Assembly: GCA_963836315.1 (NCBI GenBank) | Contig: CAWIJG010000002.1 | Coordinates: forward strand, 1,042,461 to 1,106,460 | From: an uncultured Verrucomicrobiae bacterium | GTDB taxonomy: Bacteria > Verrucomicrobiota > Verrucomicrobiia > Palsa-1439 | Direction: 5' to 3' | Length of the DNA: 64,000 nt | In this document: positions 51,743-64,000 of the stretch, one piece after another | How positions within the stretch are numbered: position 1 is the first letter of the stretch | How the letters are laid out: each line of letters opens with the position of its first letter | Made by a program: the position numbers and the translations under genes | Notes under the pieces: generated by a model | Seen by the model: the letters and a program-made list of their open reading frames with translations, nothing else | What the model was told of the DNA's origin: nothing | The model's database searches: none

Positions 51743-53092
51743 ATGACGATGGGGCACGATCAGTTGTGGCGAGACGCAAGCAAGATTCTGCAAGGGATGC
51801 TCAATCCCGAATTATTCAACCGTTGGTTCGCGCCCATTAAACCCGTGGAAGTCATTCAAGACGCACTGGTGTTGGGAGTGGCCAATGAGTTCTACCAGAT
51901 CTGGCTCCAAGACAACTTCCTACCCTTGATACGTGAGGCGGTTAATCAGGTTTCCCGCCAACCGCTGCAGGTTCGCTTAACTGTCAGCCAAGGATTGAAA
52001 GCGCCGGCCGAATTGGCGCGACCGGCGGCGGTTATGGCTGAGAAGCGCGAGACAACCAAGACCGACCTCGATGCAAAGCTGAATCCACGCAACACGTTTG
52101 CGGGATTCGTCGTGGGTCCCAACAACAACTTCGCCCACGCGGCCGCGATGGCCGTCGCCCAATCACCCGCGAAGGCCTACAACCCGCTGTTCATCTACGG
52201 CGGGGTGGGTCTCGGCAAGACCCACCTCATGCAGGCCATCGGGCATGCGGCTTCGGCCAACGGCAAGGTCCGCAGGGTTTGCTATATCACCTGCGAGCAG
52301 TTCACCAATGATTTCATTCAAGCGATTCAAAACAGCAGCATGACGAAGTTTCGCAAGAAGTACCGCCAAGCCGACGTGCTCCTCATTGACGACATCCAGT
52401 TCCTGGCGGGCAAGGAGCGGATGCAGGACGAGTTTTTTCACACCTTCAACACACTCTTTGACGCGCATAAGCAGATCGTCCTGTCCAGCGACCGACCGGC
52501 CGCCGAAATTGCCAACCTCGAAGTTCGGCTCGTTTCCCGCTTTGAGTGGGGCTTGGTTACGGAGCTCCAACCACCCGCCCTTGAGACGCGCATCGCCATC
52601 CTCAAGAAGAAGGCAGCTGTGATGGATGTGAAGCTTTCTGATCAAGTGATTGAATTCATTGCCGAGAAGATTCGCACCAATATTCGCCGATTGGAGGGCG
52701 CTCTTGTCCGTGTGGCCTCCTACGCATCTCTCACGGGCAAAGAGGTTAACCGCGACGCTTTGGAGTCACTCCTCCGGGATGCGCTCCACGAAGAAGCCAA
52801 GCGGACGCTCACCATCGAATCCATCCAAAAGAAAGTCGCCGAACACTTCGACATACGCCTCGCTGATATGACCAGTCGCCGCCGTCCCCAAAACGTGGCG
52901 TTCCCGCGGCAAGTGGCGATGTATCTGAGCCGGACGTTGACAAGTCGGTCACTCGCGGACATCGGAGAATCTTTCGGCGGACGCGACCACGGCACGGTTC
53001 TCCACGCGTGTCGGGTCATTGAGAAACGCACGGGAAAGGATCAACGTCTGCGTCAGACGGTGTCGTATCTGGAGCAGTCGCTACAGCGTTAA
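51743..53092 (+). CDS. dnaA: chromosomal replication initiator DnaA
   Basis: YNPLFIYGGVGLGKTHL, LLIDDIQF, SRFEWGL, FGGRDHGTVLHA. Confidence 0.98.
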   Translation: MTMGHDQLWRDASKILQGMLNPELFNRWFAPIKPVEVIQDALVLGVANEFYQIWLQDNFLPLIREAVNQVSRQPLQVRLTVSQGLKAPAELARPAAVMAEKRETTKTDLDAKLNPRNTFAGFVVGPNNNFAHAAAMAVAQSPAKAYNPLFIYGGVGLGKTHLMQAIGHAASANGKVRRVCYITCEQFTNDFIQAIQNSSMTKFRKKYRQADVLLIDDIQFLAGKERMQDEFFHTFNTLFDAHKQIVLSSDRPAAEIANLEVRLVSRFEWGLVTELQPPALETRIAILKKKAAVMDVKLSDQVIEFIAEKIRTNIRRLEGALVRVASYASLTGKEVNRDALESLLRDALHEEAKRTLTIESIQKKVAEHFDIRLADMTSRRRPQNVAFPRQVAMYLSRTLTSRSLADIGESFGGRDHGTVLHACRVIEKRTGKDQRLRQTVSYLEQSLQR

Positions 53093-53323: not shown

Positions 53324-54424
53324 ATGCCGATAAAACTCAAAGTCACCAAAGAAGCCATTCTCGATGGTTTGCAGCGCGTTCAGAATGTTGTGAGCACCCG
53401 TACCACGTTGCCGATCTTGTCCAACGTGCTTGTTCAGGCATCTAGCGGTAGTGTTAGTCTCACGACCACGGACTTGGATGTTGGTGTTCGTTGCAAGGTG
53501 GAAGCGGACGTATCAAAAACCGGTTCAACCACGTTGCCCGCGAGAAAGTTGTTTTCCATCTTGAAGGAAGTGCCTGCGGCCGAGATCGAAGTGGAAGTGG
53601 ATGACCGCAACGCGGCCTCGATTCGTTGTGGGTCGTCATTCTATAAAATCATGGGCCTGCCGGAAGAGGAATTTCCACGGTTTCCCGAATCCGGGGCGGG
53701 CAAAGCGCTTAAAATCGAGCAAATCGTGTTGCGCGATATGCTCAAGAAGACTGCTTATGCCGTATCGAATGACGAAACACGCTACGTACTGAATGGCGTT
53801 TTCATGGGATTCAAGGGGGACAAACTCACGGTCGTCGCCACCGATGGGCGGCGCTTGGCTCTCATCGAGCACGACATCGAGGTGCCCAAAGGAGCCGAGA
53901 CCGAGTTGATTCTCCCCAGTAAGGCGGTTGGCGAATTGGAACGCCTGCTGGCCGACAAAGGTGACGTAAAACTCTCCATTGGTGAAAACCAAATCGTTTT
54001 CGATTTGGATGGCACCACTCTGGCCTCCAAACTCATTGAGGGTACCTATCCAAACTTTCGTCAAGTGATCCCTGCTGAGACGAAGGAACGAATCCCCTTG
54101 GAGCGCGAATTACTGTTGGCGGCACTCCATCGCGCCTCGATACTGGCCAGCGAAAAGTCCCAGTCGGTAAAGCTGAGTTTCGGCAAGAACACGCTGACAA
54201 TCACGGCAACCACACCGGAAGTCGGCGAAGCCAAGGAAACCCTCTCCATCAACTACAAAGGCAAGGAGATGGCAATTGCCTTTAACCCGCAATACATGAT
54301 GGACCCATTGCGTAATCTTGATGCCGACGAGGTTTTTCTTGAATTGGCGGACGAACTTAGCCCTGGTGTCATCAAAGTCAACGCGCCCTTCCTCTACGTC
54401 CTGATGCCCATGCGGCTAAGCTAG
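53324..54424 (+). CDS. dnaN: DNA polymerase III beta clamp
   Basis: TLPILSN, TDLD, RYVLNG, VATDGRRL, LIEGTYP, VLMPMR. Confidence 0.98.
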   Translation: MPIKLKVTKEAILDGLQRVQNVVSTRTTLPILSNVLVQASSGSVSLTTTDLDVGVRCKVEADVSKTGSTTLPARKLFSILKEVPAAEIEVEVDDRNAASIRCGSSFYKIMGLPEEEFPRFPESGAGKALKIEQIVLRDMLKKTAYAVSNDETRYVLNGVFMGFKGDKLTVVATDGRRLALIEHDIEVPKGAETELILPSKAVGELERLLADKGDVKLSIGENQIVFDLDGTTLASKLIEGTYPNFRQVIPAETKERIPLERELLLAALHRASILASEKSQSVKLSFGKNTLTITATTPEVGEAKETLSINYKGKEMAIAFNPQYMMDPLRNLDADEVFLELADELSPGVIKVNAPFLYVLMPMRLS

Positions 54425-54516: not shown

Positions 54517-54590
54517 TGCCTCGTAGTGTAATGGTAGCACAACTGACTCTGGATCAGTTTGTCTAGGTTCGAGTCCTAGCGAGGCAGCCA
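54517..54590 (+). tRNA. tRNA-Gln(CTG), integration target
   Basis: TGCCTCG/CGAGGCA acceptor, ACTGA-CTCTGGA-TCAGT anticodon arm, GGTTCGAGTCC, CCA. Confidence 0.96.
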
Positions 54591-54729
54591 TCTTAGCAAA
54601 AGCCAATGTTTACCGATACAAAGTGAACATTGGCATTTTTGAAAATCCGATTTTATTTGCCCTATTTTGCCTTATGTGCTAGTTTTGCCTGTAGTTTCCA
54701 ACAGTAACCAACGAAGGGAGCAGGCGGCC

Positions 54730-56046
54730 ATGAGAGCACAGAAACGCGGGAAAAAGGGCGAGGTTCACGTTTACCAGCCGTCAGGCTCGGCCTCGTTCTG
54801 GGTGCGCTACACCGTCAACGGCAAGCGGCAGCGGCAGAACACCGGGAAGGCAACCGAGGCTGAGGCGCGCATCTTCGCCGCGCAAGTGGGCCGCATGGTG
54901 GGGCTGGCTTCCAGTGACAACCTCGACGAAAAGCGCCGCCTCTTGGAGATCGCCCGCGAACTTCTCCGCGAACTTCCCGAACTCGAAACCGAAGCCGCGC
55001 ACCTCACGGCGACAAAGAACTTGCCCACGGTGCGGGAATGGTTCACCCGCGAACTCGACGCCATGCGCCATAACACCAGCGGTGATGATCGGGAATTGAA
55101 AGCCGTCAGCATCGCCCGCGTGGGCCAAGTGGTGGAAGACTTCATCGCCCACCTTGCGGCGCAACAGGTCAACCTGGCCGACGCGCCGCTCAACCGTATC
55201 GGGCCGGATGACGTGAAGGGCTTTCTGTCTGACTACAAGGGCAAGGGCTACAGCGGGAAATCCCGCCTCTTTGCCCGTGATCGTATCCGCGCCATGCTGG
55301 GCCACGCCGTGGACAAGGGCTTGTTGCCGGTGAATCCCGCCAGCATCAAACAGGTGGGCCGCCTCAAATTCGACACCGCCAGCATCCGCCAGCCGTTCAA
55401 CGGCGCGCAACTCGCCGCCGTGATCGCCGCCGCCGCGAACTCCCCGGAGAAGTGGGTTTACCTCACGGCCATGCTCGCCCTCTACACGGGCCAGCGGGCC
55501 GGTGACGTTTGCGCCATGCGGTGGGAAGACGTGAAAGACTTCGACGGTCCGCTGCCGACAATTCACCTTGTCCAACAGAAGACGGGCAACGCCCTTGTGA
55601 TACCGATTGCCGAACCGCTACGCCGCGCCCTTAAAGCGATTCCGAAGGCCGAGCGCACCGGCTACATCATCGGCCAGAAGATCGGGGAAGCCTACGCACA
55701 AGGTCGCCGCCGCAACTTTATTCGGGGCTGGCGCGAATTGCTGAATGGCCTCGACTTGGCCGGCATGGTGGACGTGCCGACGCTTGCCAAAGTGGACGGC
55801 AACGGCACACATGGCCGCACCCGCTACGCATGGAGCTTCCACAGTTTCCGCCACACCACGGCCACGCACTTGAGCGGCCCGGACGCGCACTATCTACTCG
55901 GCCATCGGAGCGCCGACGAAAAGCGGCTCGGCATCACCGCGCAATACCGGCACGAAGACTTGCGCCGCCTCAAAAAGCAACTCGACGAAATCTCCCACAC
56001 CGCGCCCCCCAACGTGGTGCAACTGCAAGCTGCTGTCACTGCGTGA
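54730..56046 (+). CDS. tyrosine integrase
   Basis: N-terminal arm-binding FWVRYTVNGKR; TGQRAGD, QQKTG, HSFRH, LGH and AQY catalytic residues. Confidence 0.92.
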   Translation: MRAQKRGKKGEVHVYQPSGSASFWVRYTVNGKRQRQNTGKATEAEARIFAAQVGRMVGLASSDNLDEKRRLLEIARELLRELPELETEAAHLTATKNLPTVREWFTRELDAMRHNTSGDDRELKAVSIARVGQVVEDFIAHLAAQQVNLADAPLNRIGPDDVKGFLSDYKGKGYSGKSRLFARDRIRAMLGHAVDKGLLPVNPASIKQVGRLKFDTASIRQPFNGAQLAAVIAAAANSPEKWVYLTAMLALYTGQRAGDVCAMRWEDVKDFDGPLPTIHLVQQKTGNALVIPIAEPLRRALKAIPKAERTGYIIGQKIGEAYAQGRRRNFIRGWRELLNGLDLAGMVDVPTLAKVDGNGTHGRTRYAWSFHSFRHTTATHLSGPDAHYLLGHRSADEKRLGITAQYRHEDLRRLKKQLDEISHTAPPNVVQLQAAVTA

Positions 56047-56055
56047 AGGGCAAAT

Positions 56056-56633
56056 ATGAAGACGAAGAGTGAAGAAAGCCCAGCGTATGTCATGAAGAGG
56101 AACGGCAGAGGCGTTGAGGGTTGGAACAGACAGGGTTGGGAATTCAAAGTTTATCGCCTTGGCACAACGCGCAGGGATTCCCCGAAAACCAACCCAGCAG
56201 TTCGACTTCTGGGATGCACATGCAGGTTTCATTTTCGCACCCGATGGTGCGGTGGAGGAAGTGAGGAAAAATGCGAAGAACGACAACCCCCAACTCAAGG
56301 TTTTCCCGAAAGTCTTGGCAAAAAAGGATACAAAGCAACGTCTCCAACTCCTCGACGGATTTGCCTATGGCATCCAGTGCTACGTAGAGTCCAGAAGACA
56401 AGGCACCGGGAAAGGATGTTCTGACAGAACGCCTGTCATCAAGGCAATATCGGATGGAATGAAGGAAGCTGGAGAGTTGCGTAGCGTTCGGGAGCTTCAC
56501 GAGTGGCTCACGCGGAAGCTCGGGGCAAATCGCGCGGGGAGCCTGAAGCGTGTCGAAGAAAATCGCCCAATATTTGGGAATCAGTTTCCGCCCACCAGGG
56601 CGGCCCCGAAAAATTCAGAAGCCGGTGCGCTGA
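56056..56633 (+). CDS. hypothetical element protein with C-terminal HTH-like / GRP motif (probably two frameshifts)
   Basis: SVRELHEWL...GSLKRVE, then in shifted frame KIAQYLGISFRPPGRPRK to TGA 56633. Confidence 0.45.
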
Positions 56634-56677
56634 GGCTGGGGAGGTTTTGCATTGCCGCTGGACATACAGTGGCAGTG

Positions 56678-56938
56678 ATGAAACCACACGAACTTTCGAC
56701 ACGTTCCGCGACGGGCGTACTGCCCACTGAACTGGAGATCATCCCTGCCGCTGTCATTCGGCAACGGATACCGGAAACCAACCTCTGGCGCTTGGAGAAA
56801 TCCGGCGAGCTTCCCGCGCTCCGCATTGGCCGTCGCCGGTTCTATCGCCTCAGTGATTGGCAGGCATTTCTCAATCGCGCCGCGAAAGCGCCGCCCGTGG
56901 CCGTGCCGTGGGGCAAGAAGCGAGAGGCCATCGCGTGA
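56678..56938 (+). CDS. excisionase/AlpA-like HTH protein, copy 1
   Basis: LWRLEKSGELPALRIGRRRFYRLSD wing motif. Confidence 0.78.
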   Translation: MKPHELSTRSATGVLPTELEIIPAAVIRQRIPETNLWRLEKSGELPALRIGRRRFYRLSDWQAFLNRAAKAPPVAVPWGKKREAIA

Positions 56939-57171
56939 ACGCCGAGACGGAAAAAAATTTTGCCGCGACATGTTCGGAGTCAACCCTGCTTACTCCGCAG
57001 GACATCGCGCGCCCGAACGCCGTTCACGCCAACACAGTCAAGCGCGTCGCGGACGAGTTGGGCATGGAGATCATCCGCACGCCAAATGGTTGCCGTTTGT
57101 TCACACCCGCACAGGCTCAGCGCATCGGGGATGAGATCAAGCGCCGACGACAGGAGGCGATGCGCCGATGA
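56935..57171 (+). CDS. MerR-like HTH protein
   Basis: LTPQDIA...HANTVKR...RTPNGCRLFT; 4-nt start/stop overlaps on both sides. Confidence 0.65.
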   Translation: MNAETEKNFAATCSESTLLTPQDIARPNAVHANTVKRVADELGMEIIRTPNGCRLFTPAQAQRIGDEIKRRRQEAMRR

Positions 57172-57905
57172 GCGGATTCACCAAACTGTTTTCAGACATC
57201 ATCCTGTCGAGCGTCTGGTCTGAGGATGACAAAACTAGAATCGTGTGGGTGACTTTGCTCGCCATCTCCAACGCCGACGGCTTCGTGAGCGGTTCGGTTC
57301 CCGGCCTTGCCGCCGCCGCTCGTGTCTCGGTAGCCGAGTGCGACACCGCCTTGCAGAAACTCGCCAGCCCTGACCCGCACTCCCGAACCAAAGACCACGA
57401 AGGCCGACGCATCGAAGCCGTTGACGGCGGCTGGCTGATTTTGAATTACCGGGCTTACCGTGACCGGGTGAGTGATGACCCGAACGCGGTTGCGGCTCGC
57501 GAACGTGTGCGCCGGGATCGGGAGCGGCAGAAGTCGCCCCTTCCCCCAGACCCCCATCCCGGAACTACAGAAGACATAAGACAGAAGCAGAAGCAGGGTA
57601 ACATTACGTTACGTTACAGGTAACGGCTTTGAGGAGTTCTGGAAGGCGTACCCTCGCAAAGTGGGGAAGGCAGAAGCGGAAAAGGCGTTCGCCAAATTGC
57701 CGTACCGGTGGCGACACTGCCGCTCATGCTCGCCGCTCTCAAGTGGCAATGCTCCACGCCGCAGTGGACGAAGGACAGCGGCCAGTTCATCCCGTACCCG
57801 TCAACGTACATCAACCTCCGCCGGTGGGAGGACCAGCTGCAGAAAGGCCATCGTGCCCTAACCGACGCTGACGATCAGCGCGGCTTCAGGAGTGCAACAC
57901 TATGA
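57168..57905 (+). CDS. phage-type replication initiator (frameshifts near 57615 and 57705)
   Basis: N-terminal wHTH FTKLFSDII.SSVW..D..TRIVW; C-terminal FEEFWKAYPRKVGK...IPYPSTYIN..RWED. Confidence 0.75.
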
Positions 57906-58264
57906 CTGAGCAAGAGACATCAACCACAACCGACATGACGGCAATGAACCAAGCACCAGTTTTACAGGAAAAAGCAGGCCACAAACCCGGCACGTTCGTT
58001 CCCGGCGACAAGCGCATCAATCGCAAGGGAAGGCCAAAGAGTTTTCGCCAACTCCGTGAGCGCGTCTTGGCGTTCCTAGCGGAACAAGACGATCGCGCCA
58101 GCGGCACACGGCTCGAAGCCATCTTGCGTCAACTCGCTGCTGACGACCCCAAAACGCTTTTGGAGTATGGCTTTGGCAAAGTGCCGTCAGGGGTCGAGAT
58201 GGCTGGCACGGACAGCGAGAAAATTCAGTTTGTCGTGAGGCTCAGGCCCGACGAGTTGCCGTAA
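57902..58264 (+). CDS. small-terminase-like protein (DUF5681-like)
   Basis: FVPGDKRINRKGRPK motif, LLEYGFGK, 120 aa, coupled to the rep gene. Confidence 0.55.
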   Translation: MTEQETSTTTDMTAMNQAPVLQEKAGHKPGTFVPGDKRINRKGRPKSFRQLRERVLAFLAEQDDRASGTRLEAILRQLAADDPKTLLEYGFGKVPSGVEMAGTDSEKIQFVVRLRPDELP

Positions 58265-58380
58265 GTGCGGAGAGTCAGAGCGGCACGCGTCGGCCATCCT
58301 GAGCAGCCCCTTGCCGATCCTGGAGCCTTGCCAGTGCACCCCACCCGGTGTTATCGTGCACGGCAACGAGAGGCGTCAGC

Positions 58381-59440
58381 ATGGACATCACCTTTGCGTG
58401 TGAATCTTGCGGGCAGCATATCGTGATTGACGAGGCGGGGAGTGGGCTGCAAGTGATATGCCCCACATGCGGACTTGGTATCACTGTTCCAAAACCTCGC
58501 CCGGTGGGTTGTCCGAACCTTCCACCTCCACCACGGCAGGTGCCCTCACATTCTTCTGCTGGCGAAGCCGACCTCCCGTCAGTAACACACCTCTTGGAAT
58601 CATTTATTCCCGGAGTGCCTTCTCGCTTCCGCTTGGACTTCATGGGGCGAAGTTCGGAATACGAGGTGTCTGCTGAGCAACCTATGGAAGCGTACCAGGA
58701 TGACGTGGAAGCGCTCAACTTTCATGGCTGGTTCAGGGACTCTTTGAGCGGTGACTACTCGGTTGCGTGGGGCACGCGGAACCCCACTGGGGGATACGAC
58801 ACCGAGTATTTGCTCTTACATCAAGGCAGTATCTTGGCGCAGGGAAAGCGCACAAGCATTCAGGATGCCGTCGTAGCGGACAACGGAACCTTCCTGATTC
58901 ACGATTGCGGCGCATCCCTACAGAATGGGTTACGCTCTTCGATATCGGTGGCAGGAAGCTGAAGCAGGTGAGGCCGCATTCTACCGGCCTACTGACGTTT
59001 GACGTGCGACAGCAGACTGCCGGGATGGAAATCCGTGCTTTCCGGGATGGTTGTCGTCTGTCCGGTTGAATAACCTTCAACCTGCTGGACGGGAATGTTG
59101 AAGTCTAAGACTAGCGAGCGAATACTGCCGGAGAAGCCGAGGAACGCGTACGAGTGTTTTGACCGAGCTACTGGGGAAATGGCTGGGAAGCAATCTCCGC
59201 TGAGGAAAGAAGTGGCTGAGCGTGTCTTATCGCTTGTGCAATCGCGCGTTTGAGTTCGGGTTTGCTGAGAAATACCACTACGCAATATCGCGGACACACT
59301 GGATGCGAGGGGAAGCATTGGAGTCACTGGGCCAAAAAGAAGAGGCTTTGCGCGAGTACGAGTTGGCAGTGCAGCAAGACCCGAAGGTCGGACTGAAGAA
59401 ACGAATCGCGTCCCTGCGGAAAGAGTGCGGGAAAGAATAG
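58381..59440 (+). CDS. Zn-ribbon / beta-rich / TPR cargo protein (multiple frameshifts)
   Basis: MDITFACESCGQHI...CPTC; VADNGTFLIHD; C-terminal RGEALESLGQKEEALREYELAVQQDPKVGLKKRI. Confidence 0.55.
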
Positions 59441-59572
59441 AGGCCGCCGCGCCGCCGCTAAGGTCATCGGCAGCACCGGCTCTCCGCGCACTAGCGGCCA
59501 TCCTCAGCGCAACCGTGGCCGCTATAGTCGACGCCTTGTCAGCACACCCTGCCAGGCGTTAGGATGGCATCT

Positions 59573-60330
59573 ATGAAAACCAACATCGCCCACGGGTTAA
59601 AAAAAATCCTGCCGCATCTGTTGCAGGCTCAACAAGACAACCTGAACGAAGACGGATACGCTGAAAGGTATCGTCAAGGTCTTCGAGGAAGTTCTCGGTT
59701 ATGACTCGTGGACAGAAATTTCCCGCGAGTTGAGAGGTGAAGAGTAAGTACGTTGATCTCGCAATCAAGATTGACGAGAACAATCAAATTCTTCGTCGAG
59801 GCGAAAGCCGCTGGCAAGAAGTTGCGCCAACGCCATGTTGAACAGGTTGAGCTATACGCAGCGCAGGGAAATATCCCGTGGCTCTTGGTGACAAACGGTG
59901 ATTGAGTGGAGATTATACCGCCTTACGATCAGACGGGAGAAAGCGGTTGATTTCGAGCTAAAAGTCTTTAAAAAAAATCCGTGACATCTCGCGGGAGAGA
60001 GAATCGAGGAATCTGCTGAGATGATGCTTTACTTCACCGCAATTCTGTGAAGGCTGGAGCGCATGAGAAATTTTGGGAACGCCAGTCGGCTTGAGCCGGC
60101 GACCATCGGAAAGGCGATTTTCAGGAGGATGCTTCTTAGTACATCGGAAAGAGATTTATAAGCGGCAAGAGATTTGATTGATATTGAAGAGTTGCTGGTG
60201 AAATCAACGCTTTGTTGAAACTGAAGCAAGGGAACTAATCGGGCCGCCAAAAGTTCACTACCACAAACATGCCGTGAAGGAAACCAAGGGTCAACCGTCC
60301 GACGCAGGCGACTCCACCGCTGCTTCGCAA
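59573..60330 (+). pseudogene. HsdR N-terminal (PD-(D/E)XK) nuclease-domain gene, heavily frameshifted; 3' end approximate
   Basis: Stitched reading ...QDNLNE.DT...FEEVLGYD...EISRE..VKSKYVDLAIKID...FFVEAKAAG..LR.RHVEQ...YAA...W..VTNG. Confidence 0.65.
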
Positions 60331-60477
60331 TCCTCTGACCAACCAAGTGCTTCTCCATAGTGAGCGGTAGCGGGCGATGGCCTGCTTGGGGCTGGGCGTA
60401 ACATGCGATACTACCATGAGGCCGAGTTTCTCCGGTTTGTGTCGGACGGACTGTTCGTGGAGAAGTGCCCGGCGGTT

Positions 60478-60738
60478 TCACTGCGCAGCGTGATTCTGTT
60501 TCGCCCACGGCACGGACAGCGGCCCGCGTTGCGCACAACGATTCAGGAACTTTTCCCAGTCGGAGAGACGGTAGTATCTCCGTCTGCCGATCCGCACAGC
60601 GGGTAACTCGCCGCTGCGTTCAAATCTCCAGAGGGAGGTTTCCGGCACGAACTGCCGCACCAGACGGGCAGGGACAAGCTGTAACTCGGGCGGCAGGACG
60701 ACGGCAACGTCTTTGCTGTGGTTGCTGGTCGTTTTCAC
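60478..60738 (-). CDS. excisionase/AlpA-like HTH protein, copy 2
   Basis: 86 aa; 47/86 identical without gaps (hand count) to 56678..56938. Confidence 0.78.
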   Translation of the reverse strand: MKTTSNHSKDVAVVLPPELQLVPARLVRQFVPETSLWRFERSGELPAVRIGRRRYYRLSDWEKFLNRCAQRGPLSVPWAKQNHAAQ

Positions 60739-61073
60739 GCGGTCTTGATCGTGACGATTATTTTCTGAATCACGGGGGTGAGACTAGCACACAAGAAACA
60801 GGAATTTCGGAGCCTGCGGAAGTCGAACGTTGCACGAAGCATCCCCACGTTTATCCGTTTAGCTGTGCTTGCGCAAAATTCCTGATTTTGTGGTTGACGT
60901 GTTTTTGCGACGATCCGCAGTTCTCTCCAACGGCAGTGAATTGCTCCAGCGTGAAGCCATAGAAACCCGCCCGCTGACGAAGCGAGCACGGTCACGGTGG
61001 AGTTGCGAAGCAGACGACCTTGACGGCGCGCAGCGAGTCGTACAATCGACGCGGCATTCACGCACCCCGACTG

Positions 61074-61142
61074 CACGATGAGGTGCTCTTGGAAATATCG
61101 CTGCACATCCGGTAAACTGTATTGTGTTTTCGCTGTAAACAT
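61074..61142 (-). pseudogene. MobF/TrwC relaxase N-terminal stub
   Basis: MFTAKTQYSLPDVQRYFQEHL resembles MobF N-termini from memory; truncated before the DYY catalytic tyrosines. Confidence 0.5.
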
Positions 61143-62421
61143 GTGCACGAGGTTACGCCGGCGCTGCAAGGTTGCGTTAGCTAGTAGTGGGCGCGTTGGT
61201 TCTGGATAGGCCGAAATTGTGCCCCGCACGATTTGGTTGGTTCGTTCTGGGTCTTGGATTTGCGCGCGTTCTTGGTTTGCCAGGGCTTGATCGTGACAAT
61301 CGGTCGCACGCGTCAGGGATTGCGGATCATCACGCAGCGTCGCGAGGATTCCCGTCGCGAAATACCTCGCGCCAGCGACGGGTGGACACCCCGGGCAACA
61401 GGCGCACCATGCAGCCGCACTTTCAACGCATTACGCTTGGGAGACCCGCAGGCGAGGCCCATCCTATGTGGATGGGTTACAGAGCGGACGCCTCACTCCT
61501 ACGCAAATGCGTAGGATTTCTGACCATGCACCGGCCACTATCCGTCAACGATGTGGAAAGGTGTTGAATGGCGTTGACCGATTCAACGCCGCTCAATCCG
61601 ATTCAACACGACTGCGCTACCCGCTGTCAACGCAACAGGGTGCGTGCCTCGCGCCTCGATTATATGGCTCGCTCGCGCCGTCAATGTAGTGCGCCCTGTT
61701 CTCCCCGCGCCTCCACGATTGACTGCGCTCGCTCCGCCAAGAGTCGGCGCTTAAGAGTCACGCTCGGTCTCTCATCGCCTGTTCTGGAGTGTATTCCGAC
61801 GTTTCACCGCTCATGCGGTGACCGATTGACTCGGCGACTGCCGGTCGAACCTGGCTGTCGGTGGCGAGCAGCGCCGGGCCACGCGCCTAGGCAGCGCGCA
61901 GCCACGGACAGCGACGTGGGATCGGTACGCCTTGGCAGCGCCGCAGACGCGGCGAGCGGGACGCGGCATGAAGCGTTCGCCGCGCCGGGTCTGCCGGCAT
62001 TCCACCGGCGAGTGAACGGCGATGATTCCAACGCGGCTGCGTTCAACGCGCCGGAGTCGCAGCCGGTCTGACCGTCAGTGCTCCGGCGGCCTTCAACTTC
62101 TCTGCCATCGGCGGTTCGACATTTCATCTGACAGCGTTTGGCGCGCCCTCCGACTTTCTGTCGAGCAGCCGATGCGCTCGGCTCCAAGCAGCTTCGCCAT
62201 CGCCCGGAGGCGGGGTAAGTGTCATGGTGACTTTTTCATACTTCCGCCGTAGCCAATCCGAAGCGCATTCGGCGTTTTGCGAGGCGGAAGCCAGCCCTTT
62301 CTCCGGCGACATCGCCGCCAAAGTACAGACCAACTTGGCCCTTCCGGTCGCCAGTGCGACGGCCTGCCGCATGTCTCAGGCGCAGTGAGCTTGCGACTCT
62401 GCGCCTGCGTCAACACACCGC

Positions 62422-62450
62422 TTGACGTTATATCAATTCTGACATATCTT
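62422..62450 (+). promoter_or_regulatory. TA promoter with operator
   Basis: TTGACG-N17-TATCTT enclosing the imperfect palindrome ATATCA-N4-TGACAT. Confidence 0.65.
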
Positions 62451-62462
62451 CTCCCATGAAAC

Positions 62463-62795
62463 ATGAACGGCAAACCGCTCCGCTGGATTCATGGCGAGGT
62501 GAAGACCCCGCCCATGAGCCGGGAAGCCCGACGAGAGATCGGTTTCCTGCTCCGGGAATTGCAGGACGGCGTCCGGCTCGCGATGCCGCAGTCCCGTCCG
62601 ATGCCGGTGATCGGGGCGCGCTGCCACGAGTTGCGAGTCAACGACGTGAACAAGACGTGGCGCGTGGTGTACCGGCTGGACGCCGACGCCATTGTGATTT
62701 TGGAAGTATTTGAGAAGAAGACGAACCAGACGCCGCCGGCCGTGATTGCCGCCTGCCGGCAACGGTTGAAGCGATACGAAGAGGCACAACCATGA
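62463..62795 (+). CDS. RelE/HigB-type toxin (Gp49-like)
   Basis: VKTPP, SRPMP.IG.RCHELR, WRVVYR, FEKKT. Confidence 0.88.
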   Translation: MNGKPLRWIHGEVKTPPMSREARREIGFLLRELQDGVRLAMPQSRPMPVIGARCHELRVNDVNKTWRVVYRLDADAIVILEVFEKKTNQTPPAVIAACRQRLKRYEEAQP

Positions 62796-63079
62796 AGAAA
62801 CTGAAGAACGGATGGGTGCAAGGCTCGGCACAAGAGTTTTTGGAGTTGTCCGACGCGGACATGGCGTACATCGAGACCAAGCGCGCCCTGGCCGCTTGTC
62901 TGCGCGAACAGCGGATGAAACGGCGCCTGACGCAAACGGAACTGGCCGCCCGGCTGGAAACCAGTCAGTCCCGCGTCGCCAAGATGGAGTCCGGCGATTC
63001 GACAGTCTCGATTGACCTGCTGCTGCAAGCCCTGTATCGCATCGGCACGAAGCGCCGCCAACTGGCCGCCCTGCTCTGA
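62792..63079 (+). CDS. HigA-type XRE antitoxin
   Basis: LTQTELAARLETSQSRVAKMESG; ATGA overlap with the toxin. Confidence 0.88.
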   Translation: MKKLKNGWVQGSAQEFLELSDADMAYIETKRALAACLREQRMKRRLTQTELAARLETSQSRVAKMESGDSTVSIDLLLQALYRIGTKRRQLAALL

Positions 63080-63456
63080 GTCTCGCGCCAGCGGCCAACG
63101 TCGAGCGATTGCCGGCCAATTCTGCGCGCCTCTCAAAGTTGGACTCGTATCGTTTCGTGAACCAAAGAGTCCAAAATCTCTTTGCCTTACTTTGCCCTAT
63201 CGCACCGAAAAGTGGTGAAAACTCACGAAAAGTCAAAACTGCCGACATGCACGAAACCCGCATGGATATTGGCTAAAATCGCTCTTGTAAGATCGGCTTT
63301 TGGAATGTCTAGGTTCGAGTCCTAGCGAGGCAGCCACTTTATCATCAAGGGATTATGAAGTTTCTCCGACACAGTTCCGTCAGACCAAACAGTGATCCCC
63401 CTGTCTTTACACAGAGGGATTTACTGTAACGGGAACGGATGGTGATATGTGGGAGA

Positions 63457-64000
63457 CTAGGCAACCCTTACGCTGACGGGATGATTGCGCATCGCGAGAT
63501 AGTAGATCACGGGCACGGCCATGCGGGATAGCAGCAGAGAGGCGATTTCGCCCGCCATCAAGGAAATGGCTAGGCCCTGGAAGATCGGGTCGAATAAAAT
63601 CACGCTTCCACCCACAACCACGGCCGCCGCGGTCAGCATCATCGGGCGAAACCGCACGGCACCGGCGTCGATCACCGCTTCGGTGAGCGGCATGCCTTCA
63701 CGCACACGCAATTCGATGAAGTCCACGAGAATGATCGAGTTGCGCACGACAATCCCCGCCCCGGCGATGAACCCGATCATCGAGGTCGCTGTGAAAAATG
63801 CGCCCATTGCCCAGTGTGCGGGCAGGATGCCAACCAACGAGAACGGAATTGCCGCCATGATGATAAACGGCGTCTTAAACGAGCGAAACCAGCCAACCAC
63901 CAGCACGTAAATCAGCACCAGCACCACCGCAAAGGCCGCGCCCAAGTCGCGGAACACTTCATAGGTGATGTGCCATTCGCCGTCCCACTTCATTGACAGG
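63457..64000 (-). CDS. RND efflux permease (AcrB/CusA family), 3' part
   Basis: [28 protein letters not shown]. Confidence 0.88.

Follow-up and report, generated by a model that had tools for sequence, protein, structure and literature searches.

Integration site and gene content of the tRNA-Gln island

The window analysed here is a stretch of 64,000 nucleotides from the genome of an uncultured Verrucomicrobiae bacterium. A tRNA-Gln(ctg) gene on the plus strand (54517..54590; ARAGORN; Rfam tRNA model, 67.3 bits) is the integration target; its 3' end forms a 31-bp attL core (54560..54590), which is repeated perfectly and directly as the attR core at 63306..63336. When the whole genome was searched for this core with up to 6 mismatches tolerated, two perfect copies and one degenerate copy (25/31 matches) were found. 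The original prediction of a perfect att repeat was thus confirmed, and the two cores enclose 8.75 kb as it had proposed, but this element is only the tRNA-proximal member of two tandem insertions that together span 21.5 kb. Neither a circle junction nor an empty site was found among the assembled contigs of the runs examined. The predicted location beside oriC was also borne out, since dnaA (51743-53092) and dnaN (53324-54424) lie directly upstream and the contig's cumulative GC-skew minimum falls within about 25 kb of the island. The suggestion that this position maximises copy number gained no support: dnaN followed by tRNA-Gln is a conserved host arrangement, present in 12 of the 12 congeners fetched, and the placement was therefore not taken as selection for copy number.

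The first gene of the island encodes a tyrosine integrase (54730..56046, plus strand; phrog_1, 5e-40), which scored 47 bits against PF00589 (cut-off, 27.1 bits). Its ORF opens at 54667, with the probable ATG at 54730, and residues 19-459 aligned with a 436-aa homologue encoded beside a tRNA-Gln(ttg) gene in a genome from another family of the class (G444), so that it is full length against this homologue. The integrase gene is followed by a variable accessory slot (56114..56677, plus strand; 188 codons, sharing the frame of the following gene) that had no match in Pfam, PHROGs, PADLOC or NCBIfam; two soil-metagenome contigs carry about 1.0-1.1 kb of other sequence at this slot, between a related integrase gene and a Xis-like gene.

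Four overlapping genes on the plus strand then form an operon, encoding a Xis/AlpA-like HTH protein (xisA, 56678..56938, 86 aa), a MerR/BldC-like HTH protein (56935..57171, 78 aa; NF033787 HTH_BldC, E=1.3e-5, below cut-off), a phage-type initiator and a 120-aa protein. Their three junctions are 4-nt overlaps (GTGA at 56935-56938, ATGA at 57168-57171 and ATGA at 57902-57905). Most likely, only the 86-aa ORF, rather than the entire 274-aa ORF in which it lies, is the Xis-like gene; its product shares 58% identity with an 86-aa paralogue encoded on the opposite strand (60478-60738), and both match HTH_17 (E 1.4e-3 and 2.1e-5) and phrog_66, but below the curated cut-offs. All core genes point in the same direction, in agreement with the predicted absence of an obvious divergent repressor. 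The three overlaps uphold the predicted translational coupling of the run, but the Xis gene is most likely shorter than the 274-aa ORF, and the initiator gene is interrupted twice.

This initiator gene (57168..57905, plus strand) encodes a protein of the phage DnaD-like/'replication initiation protein' type. Its three pieces (in frame 0 as far as a stop at 57621, in frame 1 from 57622 to about 57705, and again in frame 0 over 57708-57905) aligned colinearly with intact homologues of 232-250 aa, which match the replication-initiation families phrog_9474, phrog_270 and phrog_9327 with E-values down to 5e-22, and the C-terminal piece itself matched phrog_9474 at 4e-9. To judge from its reading frames, the interrupted initiator could not work as a single protein. 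No primase match, and hence no primase-replicase, was found among the island ORFs with Pfam and PHROGs. The PHROG matches are consistent with the idea that a phage-type initiator replaces the usual primase-helicase, but this exact module was not seen in other islands without a large terminase (TerL), which use a primase/helicase.

The region from 58348 to 62420 is a zone of cargo and decay. It contains genes for a Zn-ribbon protein (58348-58962) and a TPR protein (59222-59440), a nuclease-like pseudogene spread over three reading frames (about 59564-60357) with three one-letter differences from related contigs, the second Xis-like gene on the minus strand (xisB, 60478-60738) and multi-copy repeat DNA (about 60750-62090). 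The second Xis paralogue and the repeat DNA in the right half look like debris of earlier recombination or insertion. Farther right lies a HigB(Gp49)/HigA(XRE-HTH) pair (62463..63079, plus strand; PF05973, 50.4 bits against a cut-off of 23.9; PF01381, 37 bits against 23), in which a Gp49/RelE-fold toxin gene overlaps the following XRE-HTH antitoxin gene by 4 nt (62792-62795), as in type II toxin-antitoxin systems. The HigB/HigA pair has 96% DNA copies in two congeners (G401 and G415). Scans of the island ORFs (16 in Pfam, 14 in PHROGs) gave no match to capsid, portal, tail, lysis, large-terminase, holin, head-tail connector or capsid-morphogenesis families, in accordance with the predicted absence of virion genes between the att sites. 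One weak match to small-terminase PHROGs came from the TPR repeats of ORF 59222-59440; it was read as a repeat artefact.

The breaks in the initiator gene, and perhaps those in the nuclease-like cargo gene, could be assembly errors in a fully functional satellite. Breaks of +1 and -1 within about 85 nt that restore the frame can arise from consensus errors, and an assembly from long reads would be in keeping with the genome's few, long contigs. In addition, near-identical rep and TerS-like genes lie on a 4,019-nt contig of a different assembly, where their frames are disrupted in other ways (P0091, P0003); this suggests noisy assemblies of this population. However, none of the long flanking genes is broken, and they span their profiles in full (dnaA, 449 aa; dnaN, 366 aa; an AcrB-type gene of 1060 aa, which matches positions 1-1019 of a 1021-position profile), whereas the breaks cluster within the 8.7-kb island, with two in rep and the nuclease-like gene broken over three frames. 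Among the assembled contigs of the runs, no listed piece covered the break sites. We regard assembly error as an improbable explanation and decay as the more probable one.

The DUF5681-related protein at the small-terminase position

The last gene of the operon (57902..58264, plus strand) overlaps the initiator gene by ATGA, and its 120-aa product has 66 homologues. None of the terminase models matched this protein directly, and DUF5681 (PF18932) matched it below cut-off (E=0.1; 13.6 bits against 27.5). Within the family, DUF5681 was matched by 12 of 34 members (best E, 2.4e-6) and a TerS PHROG by 1 of 34, weakly (E 0.012); the Atlas cluster nearest to the 120-aa protein is 77% DUF5681 and 92% viral. 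Like the DUF5681 proteins of tailed phages, the protein has a basic motif at its N terminus and a short core of helices; in its predicted fold, three helices make up the small core and the basic motif is disordered. Unlike those phage proteins, it belongs to a separate, well-supported clade of 12 (SH-aLRT 98) on a long branch. No clade member was found among the viral contigs, whose proteins reached at best 51% identity as compared to 54-78% within the clade.

Gene position links the family to packaging. Viral contigs yielded 196 relatives, of which the best 80 were analysed; the gene immediately after the family member encoded a large terminase in 76 of 80 (65 by Pfam at E<=1e-6, and 11 more by homology to those 65 at BLASTP E<=1e-20), in a collection skewed to contigs bearing hallmark genes such as TerL; the other four (L042, L074, L095 and L096) had no TerL assignment. 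The family gene lay directly before TerL and portal genes in 5/10 genome loci examined, and directly or two short ORFs before TerL in 3/9 metagenome loci. The only other clade member with known context (L023) precedes a methyltransferase gene rather than TerL. These observations support the predicted small-terminase-like gene as far as its position is concerned, while no named small-terminase model matched. Gene position and a distant DUF5681 link are the basis of this putative TerS assignment.

Related islands, related phages and the search for a helper

Two other elements bearing the TerS-like family were bounded by tRNA repeats. One, in a CSSED10-310 MAG (L002), is a tRNA-Ala island with a 65-nt repeat at 94% and 8,835-bp spacing; the other, in an Anaerolineaceae MAG (L012), is a tRNA-Thr island with a 69-nt perfect repeat and 6,458-bp spacing. 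Both carry an integrase gene, primase and/or helicase genes, excisionase-type HTH genes and a TerS-like family member, and in neither was a large terminase or structural match found. Judged by gene content, the PICI/SaPI-like layout is one that recurs across phyla, since the TerS-like family also occurs in these TerL-less tRNA islands, and the family is not confined to full prophages. The expected recurrence of gene order holds for integrase, replication genes and TerS-like gene in two other phyla, but not for the initiator-type module. At the DNA level, the core module (56000-58290 of the window) was not found in any of 60 relatives searched, and a scan of 400 further genomes of the phylum gave no match to the TerS-like profile. 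The host genome itself contains a second island, of 6.2 kb at a tRNA-Glu gene, with genes for an integrase, a DnaC-like loader and an uninterrupted initiator that belongs to the same PHROG families; no virion genes were found in it.

The tRNA-Gln island could also be a deletion remnant of a complete temperate prophage, in which the left arm (int, xis, regulators, replication gene and small terminase) was kept, the TerL, head, tail and lysis genes were lost, and unrelated DNA was later gathered on the right. In the great majority of cases the TerS-like gene is a phage gene adjoining TerL, as seen in the viral contigs, and its association with an initiator of the island's initiator family was found in phages: in two contigs (L065 and L066) the TerS-like gene and TerL follow such a gene at a distance of about 2 kb, and a third (L079) has it about 4.5 kb away on the opposite strand. 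Among 110 loci, the initiator family lay near the TerS-like gene only in these 3 phage contigs. The evident decay (two rep breaks, the nuclease-like pseudogene, repeat DNA and the second Xis paralogue) and the absence of the core module from the relatives point the same way. However, with perfect att cores and a full-length integrase, a large internal deletion must have spared both ends, and the rep and TerS-like genes overlap by ATGA within one compact operon. Moreover, the two other family-bearing elements are complete tRNA-bounded islands of 6.5-8.8 kb without TerL, and L023, the sole other clade member with a known neighbourhood, also has no adjacent TerL. On balance, a prophage remnant seems unlikely, though less so than assembly error, and a satellite-type island is preferred.

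The host genome (95% complete) yielded no TerL (PF03237, PF04466, PF03354), HK97 capsid (PF05065) or portal (PF04860) match, and 21 TerL and 4 portal proteins used as tblastn queries found nothing in it either; thus, no candidate helper phage was identified in this genome. This would suit a phage-independent integrative genomic island or mobilisable element whose DUF5681-related protein is a small DNA-binding regulator or accessory factor. To our knowledge, DUF5681 has no assigned or demonstrated function, and a three-helix core with a basic N-terminal motif suits many kinds of DNA-binding protein. A literature search for DUF5681 found one paper, in whose accessible text such a protein is merely listed in a virion proteome (PMC8954984). 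On the other hand, the strict placement directly before TerL in phages is the position of a small terminase gene, the recognisable core genes are all phage-type, and no relaxase, coupling protein or other conjugation or mobilisation gene was matched among the island ORFs in Pfam or PHROGs. A phage-independent origin is thus also doubtful, about as much so as assembly error.

The satellite interpretation and comparison with known systems

Phage satellites carry defence, toxin-antitoxin and other cargo genes between bacteria, and those catalogued so far stem almost wholly from Proteobacteria and Firmicutes (PMC10085698). With about even confidence, we interpret the 8.75-kb block as a tRNA-Gln-integrating island of the phage-satellite type with a PICI/SaPI-like layout, represented here by a copy that is probably defective or decaying because its initiator is broken twice and it contains a nuclease-like pseudogene, a second Xis paralogue and repeat DNA. 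The gene order would be integrase, accessory slot, coupled operon (two HTH proteins, initiator and packaging-type protein) and then accessory genes. Upon infection by a helper phage, the island would be excised through Int plus Xis, and the origin of its initiator would serve for replication. The TerS-like protein would then bring the large terminase of the helper to island DNA, which would be packaged in helper capsids. The predicted satellite is supported by the discrete island, its satellite-type gene set and order and the lack of virion genes, while the broken genes, the decayed cargo and the failure to find a helper weigh against it.

According to the available text of de Sousa et al. (2023; SatelliteFinder, PMC10085698), PICIs comprise an integrase, an alpA/merR/stl regulator, a replication module and terS, and their accessory genes lie in two places, one separating int from the regulators and the other following terS; the capsid-morphogenesis component is also absent from SaPI-type PICIs, and >99.9% of PICIs are in Proteobacteria or Firmicutes. 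The island resembles SaPI-type PICIs in its site-specific integration, its size (<10 kb), its lack of tail, holin, portal and capsid genes, and the order of its genes, in which an integrase gene and an accessory slot are followed by putative AlpA/MerR-type regulators, a replication gene, a putative small packaging gene and further accessory genes. As in the PICI definition, an integrase is present and tail, holin, portal and head-tail connector genes are absent. Unlike PICIs as described there, the island uses a phage DnaD-like initiator in place of the primase-replicase, its packaging-type gene is DUF5681-related and outside the recognised TerS families, it has neither a capsid-morphogenesis gene nor a divergently transcribed repressor, its host is a verrucomicrobium, and it is known here from genes alone.

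PICMIs, described as minimalist satellites of virulent vibriophages (Barcia-Cruz et al. 2024, PMC10803314), are likewise very small islands with integrase, AlpA and replication genes and no capsid-remodelling genes. In the text available, they also share 4-nt ATGA overlaps, as well as pseudogenes and small ORFs within non-coding DNA; two or three alpA copies occur in some members, attributed to repeated integration and recombination, and a resident prophage helper is not required. They differ in lacking a terS-like gene, integrating beside fis rather than in a tRNA gene, using a primase and being reported from Vibrionaceae only. VEIMEs (marine virion-encapsidated integrative mobile elements; Eppley et al. 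2022, PMC9618062) are similar in being small integrative elements whose gene sets depart from those of classical satellites; non-primase replication genes are present in some, and some are integrated in Verrucomicrobia, but they were defined from virus particles, whereas the tRNA-Gln island was recognised by its genes. The terms 'small terminase' and 'terS' do not occur in the main text of that report as available. Since satellites have already been reported integrated in marine Verrucomicrobia (PMC9618062), describing the island as an undescribed satellite family was too strong.

A broader reading, which we put forward tentatively and with less confidence than the satellite interpretation itself, is that the 120-aa protein may mark a cross-phylum class of minimal tRNA-integrating satellites (Verrucomicrobiota, Chloroflexota and candidate division CSSED10-310). 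Such elements would combine an integrase, an interchangeable replication module (phage initiator or primase/helicase) and a stand-alone DUF5681-type small terminase, and might draw the large terminase of phages with Terminase_3 or Terminase_6 onto their own DNA. If this class is real, it would have been missed by current finders because their TerS profiles do not cover the DUF5681 type. If the DUF5681-related gene encodes a small terminase, a family of unknown function would gain its first role and satellite finders a new marker, and small 'orphan' tRNA islands of soil and peat phyla could be interpreted as phage hitch-hikers. The locus also bears on how islands age: perfect att sites and an intact integrase outlast broken replication and cargo genes, and new islands are stacked in tandem at one tRNA.

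Integration at tRNA-Gln and a second insertion in tandem

The tRNA-Gln(ctg) gene (54517-54590) is located directly downstream of dnaA (51743-53092) and dnaN (53324-54424), and its last 31 bases (54560-54590) are perfectly repeated at 63306-63336. Genome-wide (4.2-Mb assembly), this att repeat was perfect at these two places only and recurred once more in degenerate form (25/31 matches). The tRNA was the sole match in an Rfam scan. Since the cumulative GC skew of the 1.78-Mb contig reaches its minimum within ~25 kb of dnaA, 'beside the origin' is a fair description of the 8.75-kb island bounded by the perfect repeats; the original prediction that a position next to oriC would maximise its copy number was unsupported.

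In G402, the closest congener of the host genome (G000), tRNA-Gln is directly followed by a flank that recurs in the host 21.7 kb downstream, where the third, degenerate att copy immediately precedes it. This displacement indicates that two insertions lie in tandem. The tRNA-proximal insertion is the 8.75-kb island, and the distal one is a 12.75-kb block without an integrase, extending from 63337-64000 of the window onward to G000:C2:1118576 (locus L134). This block sits between attR and the degenerate att copy, the latter abutting the ancestral tRNA-Gln flank, and carries genes for an RND efflux pump, an oxidoreductase, methyltransferases, an ECF sigma/anti-sigma pair, ArsR, a truncated LysR, and a YeiH-like protein. 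The block is probably an older island. In two further congeners, another att-like fragment lies 1.1 and 2.7 kb downstream of tRNA-Gln, and the site is an insertion hot spot. The order of dnaN followed by tRNA-Gln was kept in all 12 congeners fetched, and no homologues of any island protein were found in the fetched stretch of these genomes.

Core genes and the putative small terminase

The left 3.7 kb of the island is a compact core of co-directional genes. The tyrosine integrase ORF (54667-56046, probable start ATG 54730) matched PF00589 (47 bits) and phrog_1 (5e-40), and is full length when compared with a 436-aa, 65%-identical integrase of G444, a genome of another family in the same class. 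The G444 gene (L135:6961-8481) adjoins tRNA-Gln(ttg), with 1.1 kb of contig left beyond it. Targeting of tRNA-Gln genes seems to be general in this integrase lineage. The segment at 56114-56677 had no family match in four libraries. Two soil-metagenome contigs have ~1.0-1.1 kb of different sequence between a related integrase and the Xis-like gene, and this segment was therefore read as a variable accessory slot. It is followed by a coupled operon linked via 4-nt overlaps and consisting of xisA (56678-56938; 86 aa, with similarity to HTH_17 and phrog_66 below the cut-offs), a MerR/BldC-like HTH gene (56935-57171; 78 aa), the replication initiator gene (57168-57905), and a 120-aa ORF (57902-58264). 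A promoter scan returned 6 promoter-like sites where 2.6 were expected, and a terminator scan gave no terminator-like site downstream of the 120-aa ORF. The earlier observation of an att-bounded island with an integrase and coupled core genes was confirmed.

The 120-aa ORF, which had been described as small-terminase-like, matched no Pfam or PHROG family by itself in the family scans at E<=0.1, and against DUF5681 it got no further than E=0.1. It has 66 homologues; DUF5681 was matched by 12 of 34 aligned members (best E 2.4e-6), and DUF5681 makes up 77% of the nearest Atlas cluster, which is 92% viral. Viral contigs yielded 196 relatives, and gene neighbourhoods were counted for the best 80. 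In 65 of these 80 the next ORF was a large terminase (TerL) by Pfam, and in 11 others it showed homology to the terminases so identified, leaving 4 unassigned; the resulting proportion (76/80) is inflated, as the viral collection is enriched for TerL-bearing contigs. The order of TerS-like gene, TerL, and portal was also seen in five loci of metagenome-assembled genomes (MAGs). Since a place directly before TerL is the small-terminase position, this role was taken, judging from gene neighbourhood, as the most likely one for the protein family. An AlphaFold2 model built from a 34-row alignment has three helices and a mean pLDDT of 69. Foldseek found nothing in the PDB at E<=0.001, and its best hit in BFVD was a DUF5681 protein (E 0.2). 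Among 48,161 chains compared by VIA-align, the top score was Z 3.0, and the small terminase 7joq came in at rank 14 (Z 2.0). The model and these fold searches were uninformative. The protein profile had chance-level matches only among PDB sequences, and neither the window protein nor its DUF5681-bearing homologue P0062 had a tblastn match in cultured phage records. In a full-text literature search, DUF5681 appeared in a single paper, as one entry in a virion proteome.

Probable decay and cargo within the island

Nine intact homologues of the initiator are 232-250 aa long, and the three that were scanned matched the replication initiation families PHROGs 9474, 270, and 9327 (best E 5e-22). The window initiator aligned colinearly with the intact homologues in three pieces (frames 0, 1, 0), indicating that one extra base is present near 57621, making a TAA, and that one base is lost near 57700-57708. 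A 22-nt insertion flanked by GGTAAC was considered for the first break and ruled out, as the alignment with intact homologues showed the segment to be native and one surplus base to account for the break. The breaks may be real decay, as the intact state of long flanking genes and the breakage of a second, nuclease-like island gene suggest; they may also be assembly errors, as suggested by a 4,019-nt contig from another assembly, in which a near-identical initiator and 120-aa gene carry different disruptions. The window copy of the island is probably defective.

The right 5 kb of the island consists of cargo and debris. A Zn-ribbon protein has an N-terminal domain with many paralogues in the genome, and the adjoining TPR ORF has a 93%-identical protein copy on another contig (C7). 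A partial copy of this pair (58348-59440) lies at G000:C7:379339-381951, with 87% DNA identity over 262 bp, suggesting exchange between the island and the chromosome. The nuclease-like gene, here scattered over three frames, is intact in two congeners (266 and 261 aa), and in this intact state it is similar to the N-terminal portion of type IIG restriction enzymes. The minus strand carries a second Xis paralogue of 86 aa, 58% identical to xisA. About 1.3 kb of repeat DNA (about 60750-62090) recurs with 70-87% identity in at least five other places of the genome, as well as in numerous genomes from its genus and family; it looks non-coding, contains an inverted repeat (61032-61067 / 61638-61673), and had no Rfam or protein-family match. 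A HigB/HigA pair scored above the Pfam cut-offs and has 96%-identical DNA copies in congeners.

Relation to known satellites and recurrence of the layout

PICIs are defined by an integrase, an alpA/merR/stl regulator, a replication module, and terS, with int and terS each followed by accessory genes, and the gene order of the island matches this definition (PMC10085698). The primase-replicase feature of PICIs was tested for and was absent, and a capsid-morphogenesis gene is missing, as in SaPIs; for these reasons the island was regarded as PICI-like in its working but was not classed as a PICI. With PICMIs it has in common a minimal gene set, ATGA overlaps, debris of pseudogenes, and more than one alpA copy, but PICMIs are without terS (PMC10803314). 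VEIMEs show that satellites integrated in marine Verrucomicrobia are already on record (PMC9618062).

The core module was absent at the DNA level among 60 relatives, and the TerS-like protein profile had no match in 400 other genomes of the phylum. Two discrete, tRNA-bounded islands, each with an integrase, a primase and/or helicase, and a DUF5681-related gene, were found in a CSSED10-310 MAG (L002:1595-10494; 8,835 bp, tRNA-Ala, 65-nt repeat at 94%) and an Anaerolineaceae MAG (L012:4336-10862; 6,458 bp, tRNA-Thr, perfect 69-nt repeat). The former additionally carries excisionase-type HTH genes; neither has a large terminase or gave a structural match. The L012 island adjoins gyrB. On a tree of 97 rows, the window protein falls in a clade of 12 (SH-aLRT 98), in which the context is known for the window and locus L023 only, neither with an adjacent TerL. 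Elsewhere on the tree, TerL-less loci are dispersed, and well-supported branches require at least three origins. Locus L021, which overlaps tRNA-Lys and has a very long branch, was treated as spurious. The initiator family was close to a TerS-like gene in just 3 of 110 loci, all three phage contigs. When contig sizes were compared between close TerS-like and close initiator homologues, the 4,019-nt contig was the single coincidence, so evidence that the initiator-TerS pairing recurs stops at a near-identical copy. The satellite layout thus recurs, but the exact gene combination does not.

In the host genome (95% complete), searches for three families of TerL, for the HK97 capsid family, and for a portal family gave no match; the named control genomes did match. 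Queries of 21 TerL and 4 portal proteins, taken from phages carrying the TerS-like family, found nothing in the host genome by tblastn. The helper, if any, is not resident in the host genome. Neither an attP junction nor an empty attB was seen in contigs of four sequencing runs, each covering less than half of the stretch, and none of the listed pieces crosses the initiator break sites; the island gave no sign of mobility here. The satellite interpretation was partly supported: the architecture and the phage packaging position of the small gene's family mark the island as satellite-type.

A second island of 6.2 kb, at about 9501-15737 of contig C2 in the host genome (L136:5502-11737), is bounded by a perfect 32-nt repeat taken from the end of tRNA-Glu(ttc). 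No virion genes were found in it. Besides an integrase and three unknown ORFs, it encodes a DnaC-like loader and a DnaD-like/phage initiator that is intact at 244 aa; a 143-aa HTH protein is encoded on the opposite strand, and its nearest Atlas clusters are 95-100% viral.
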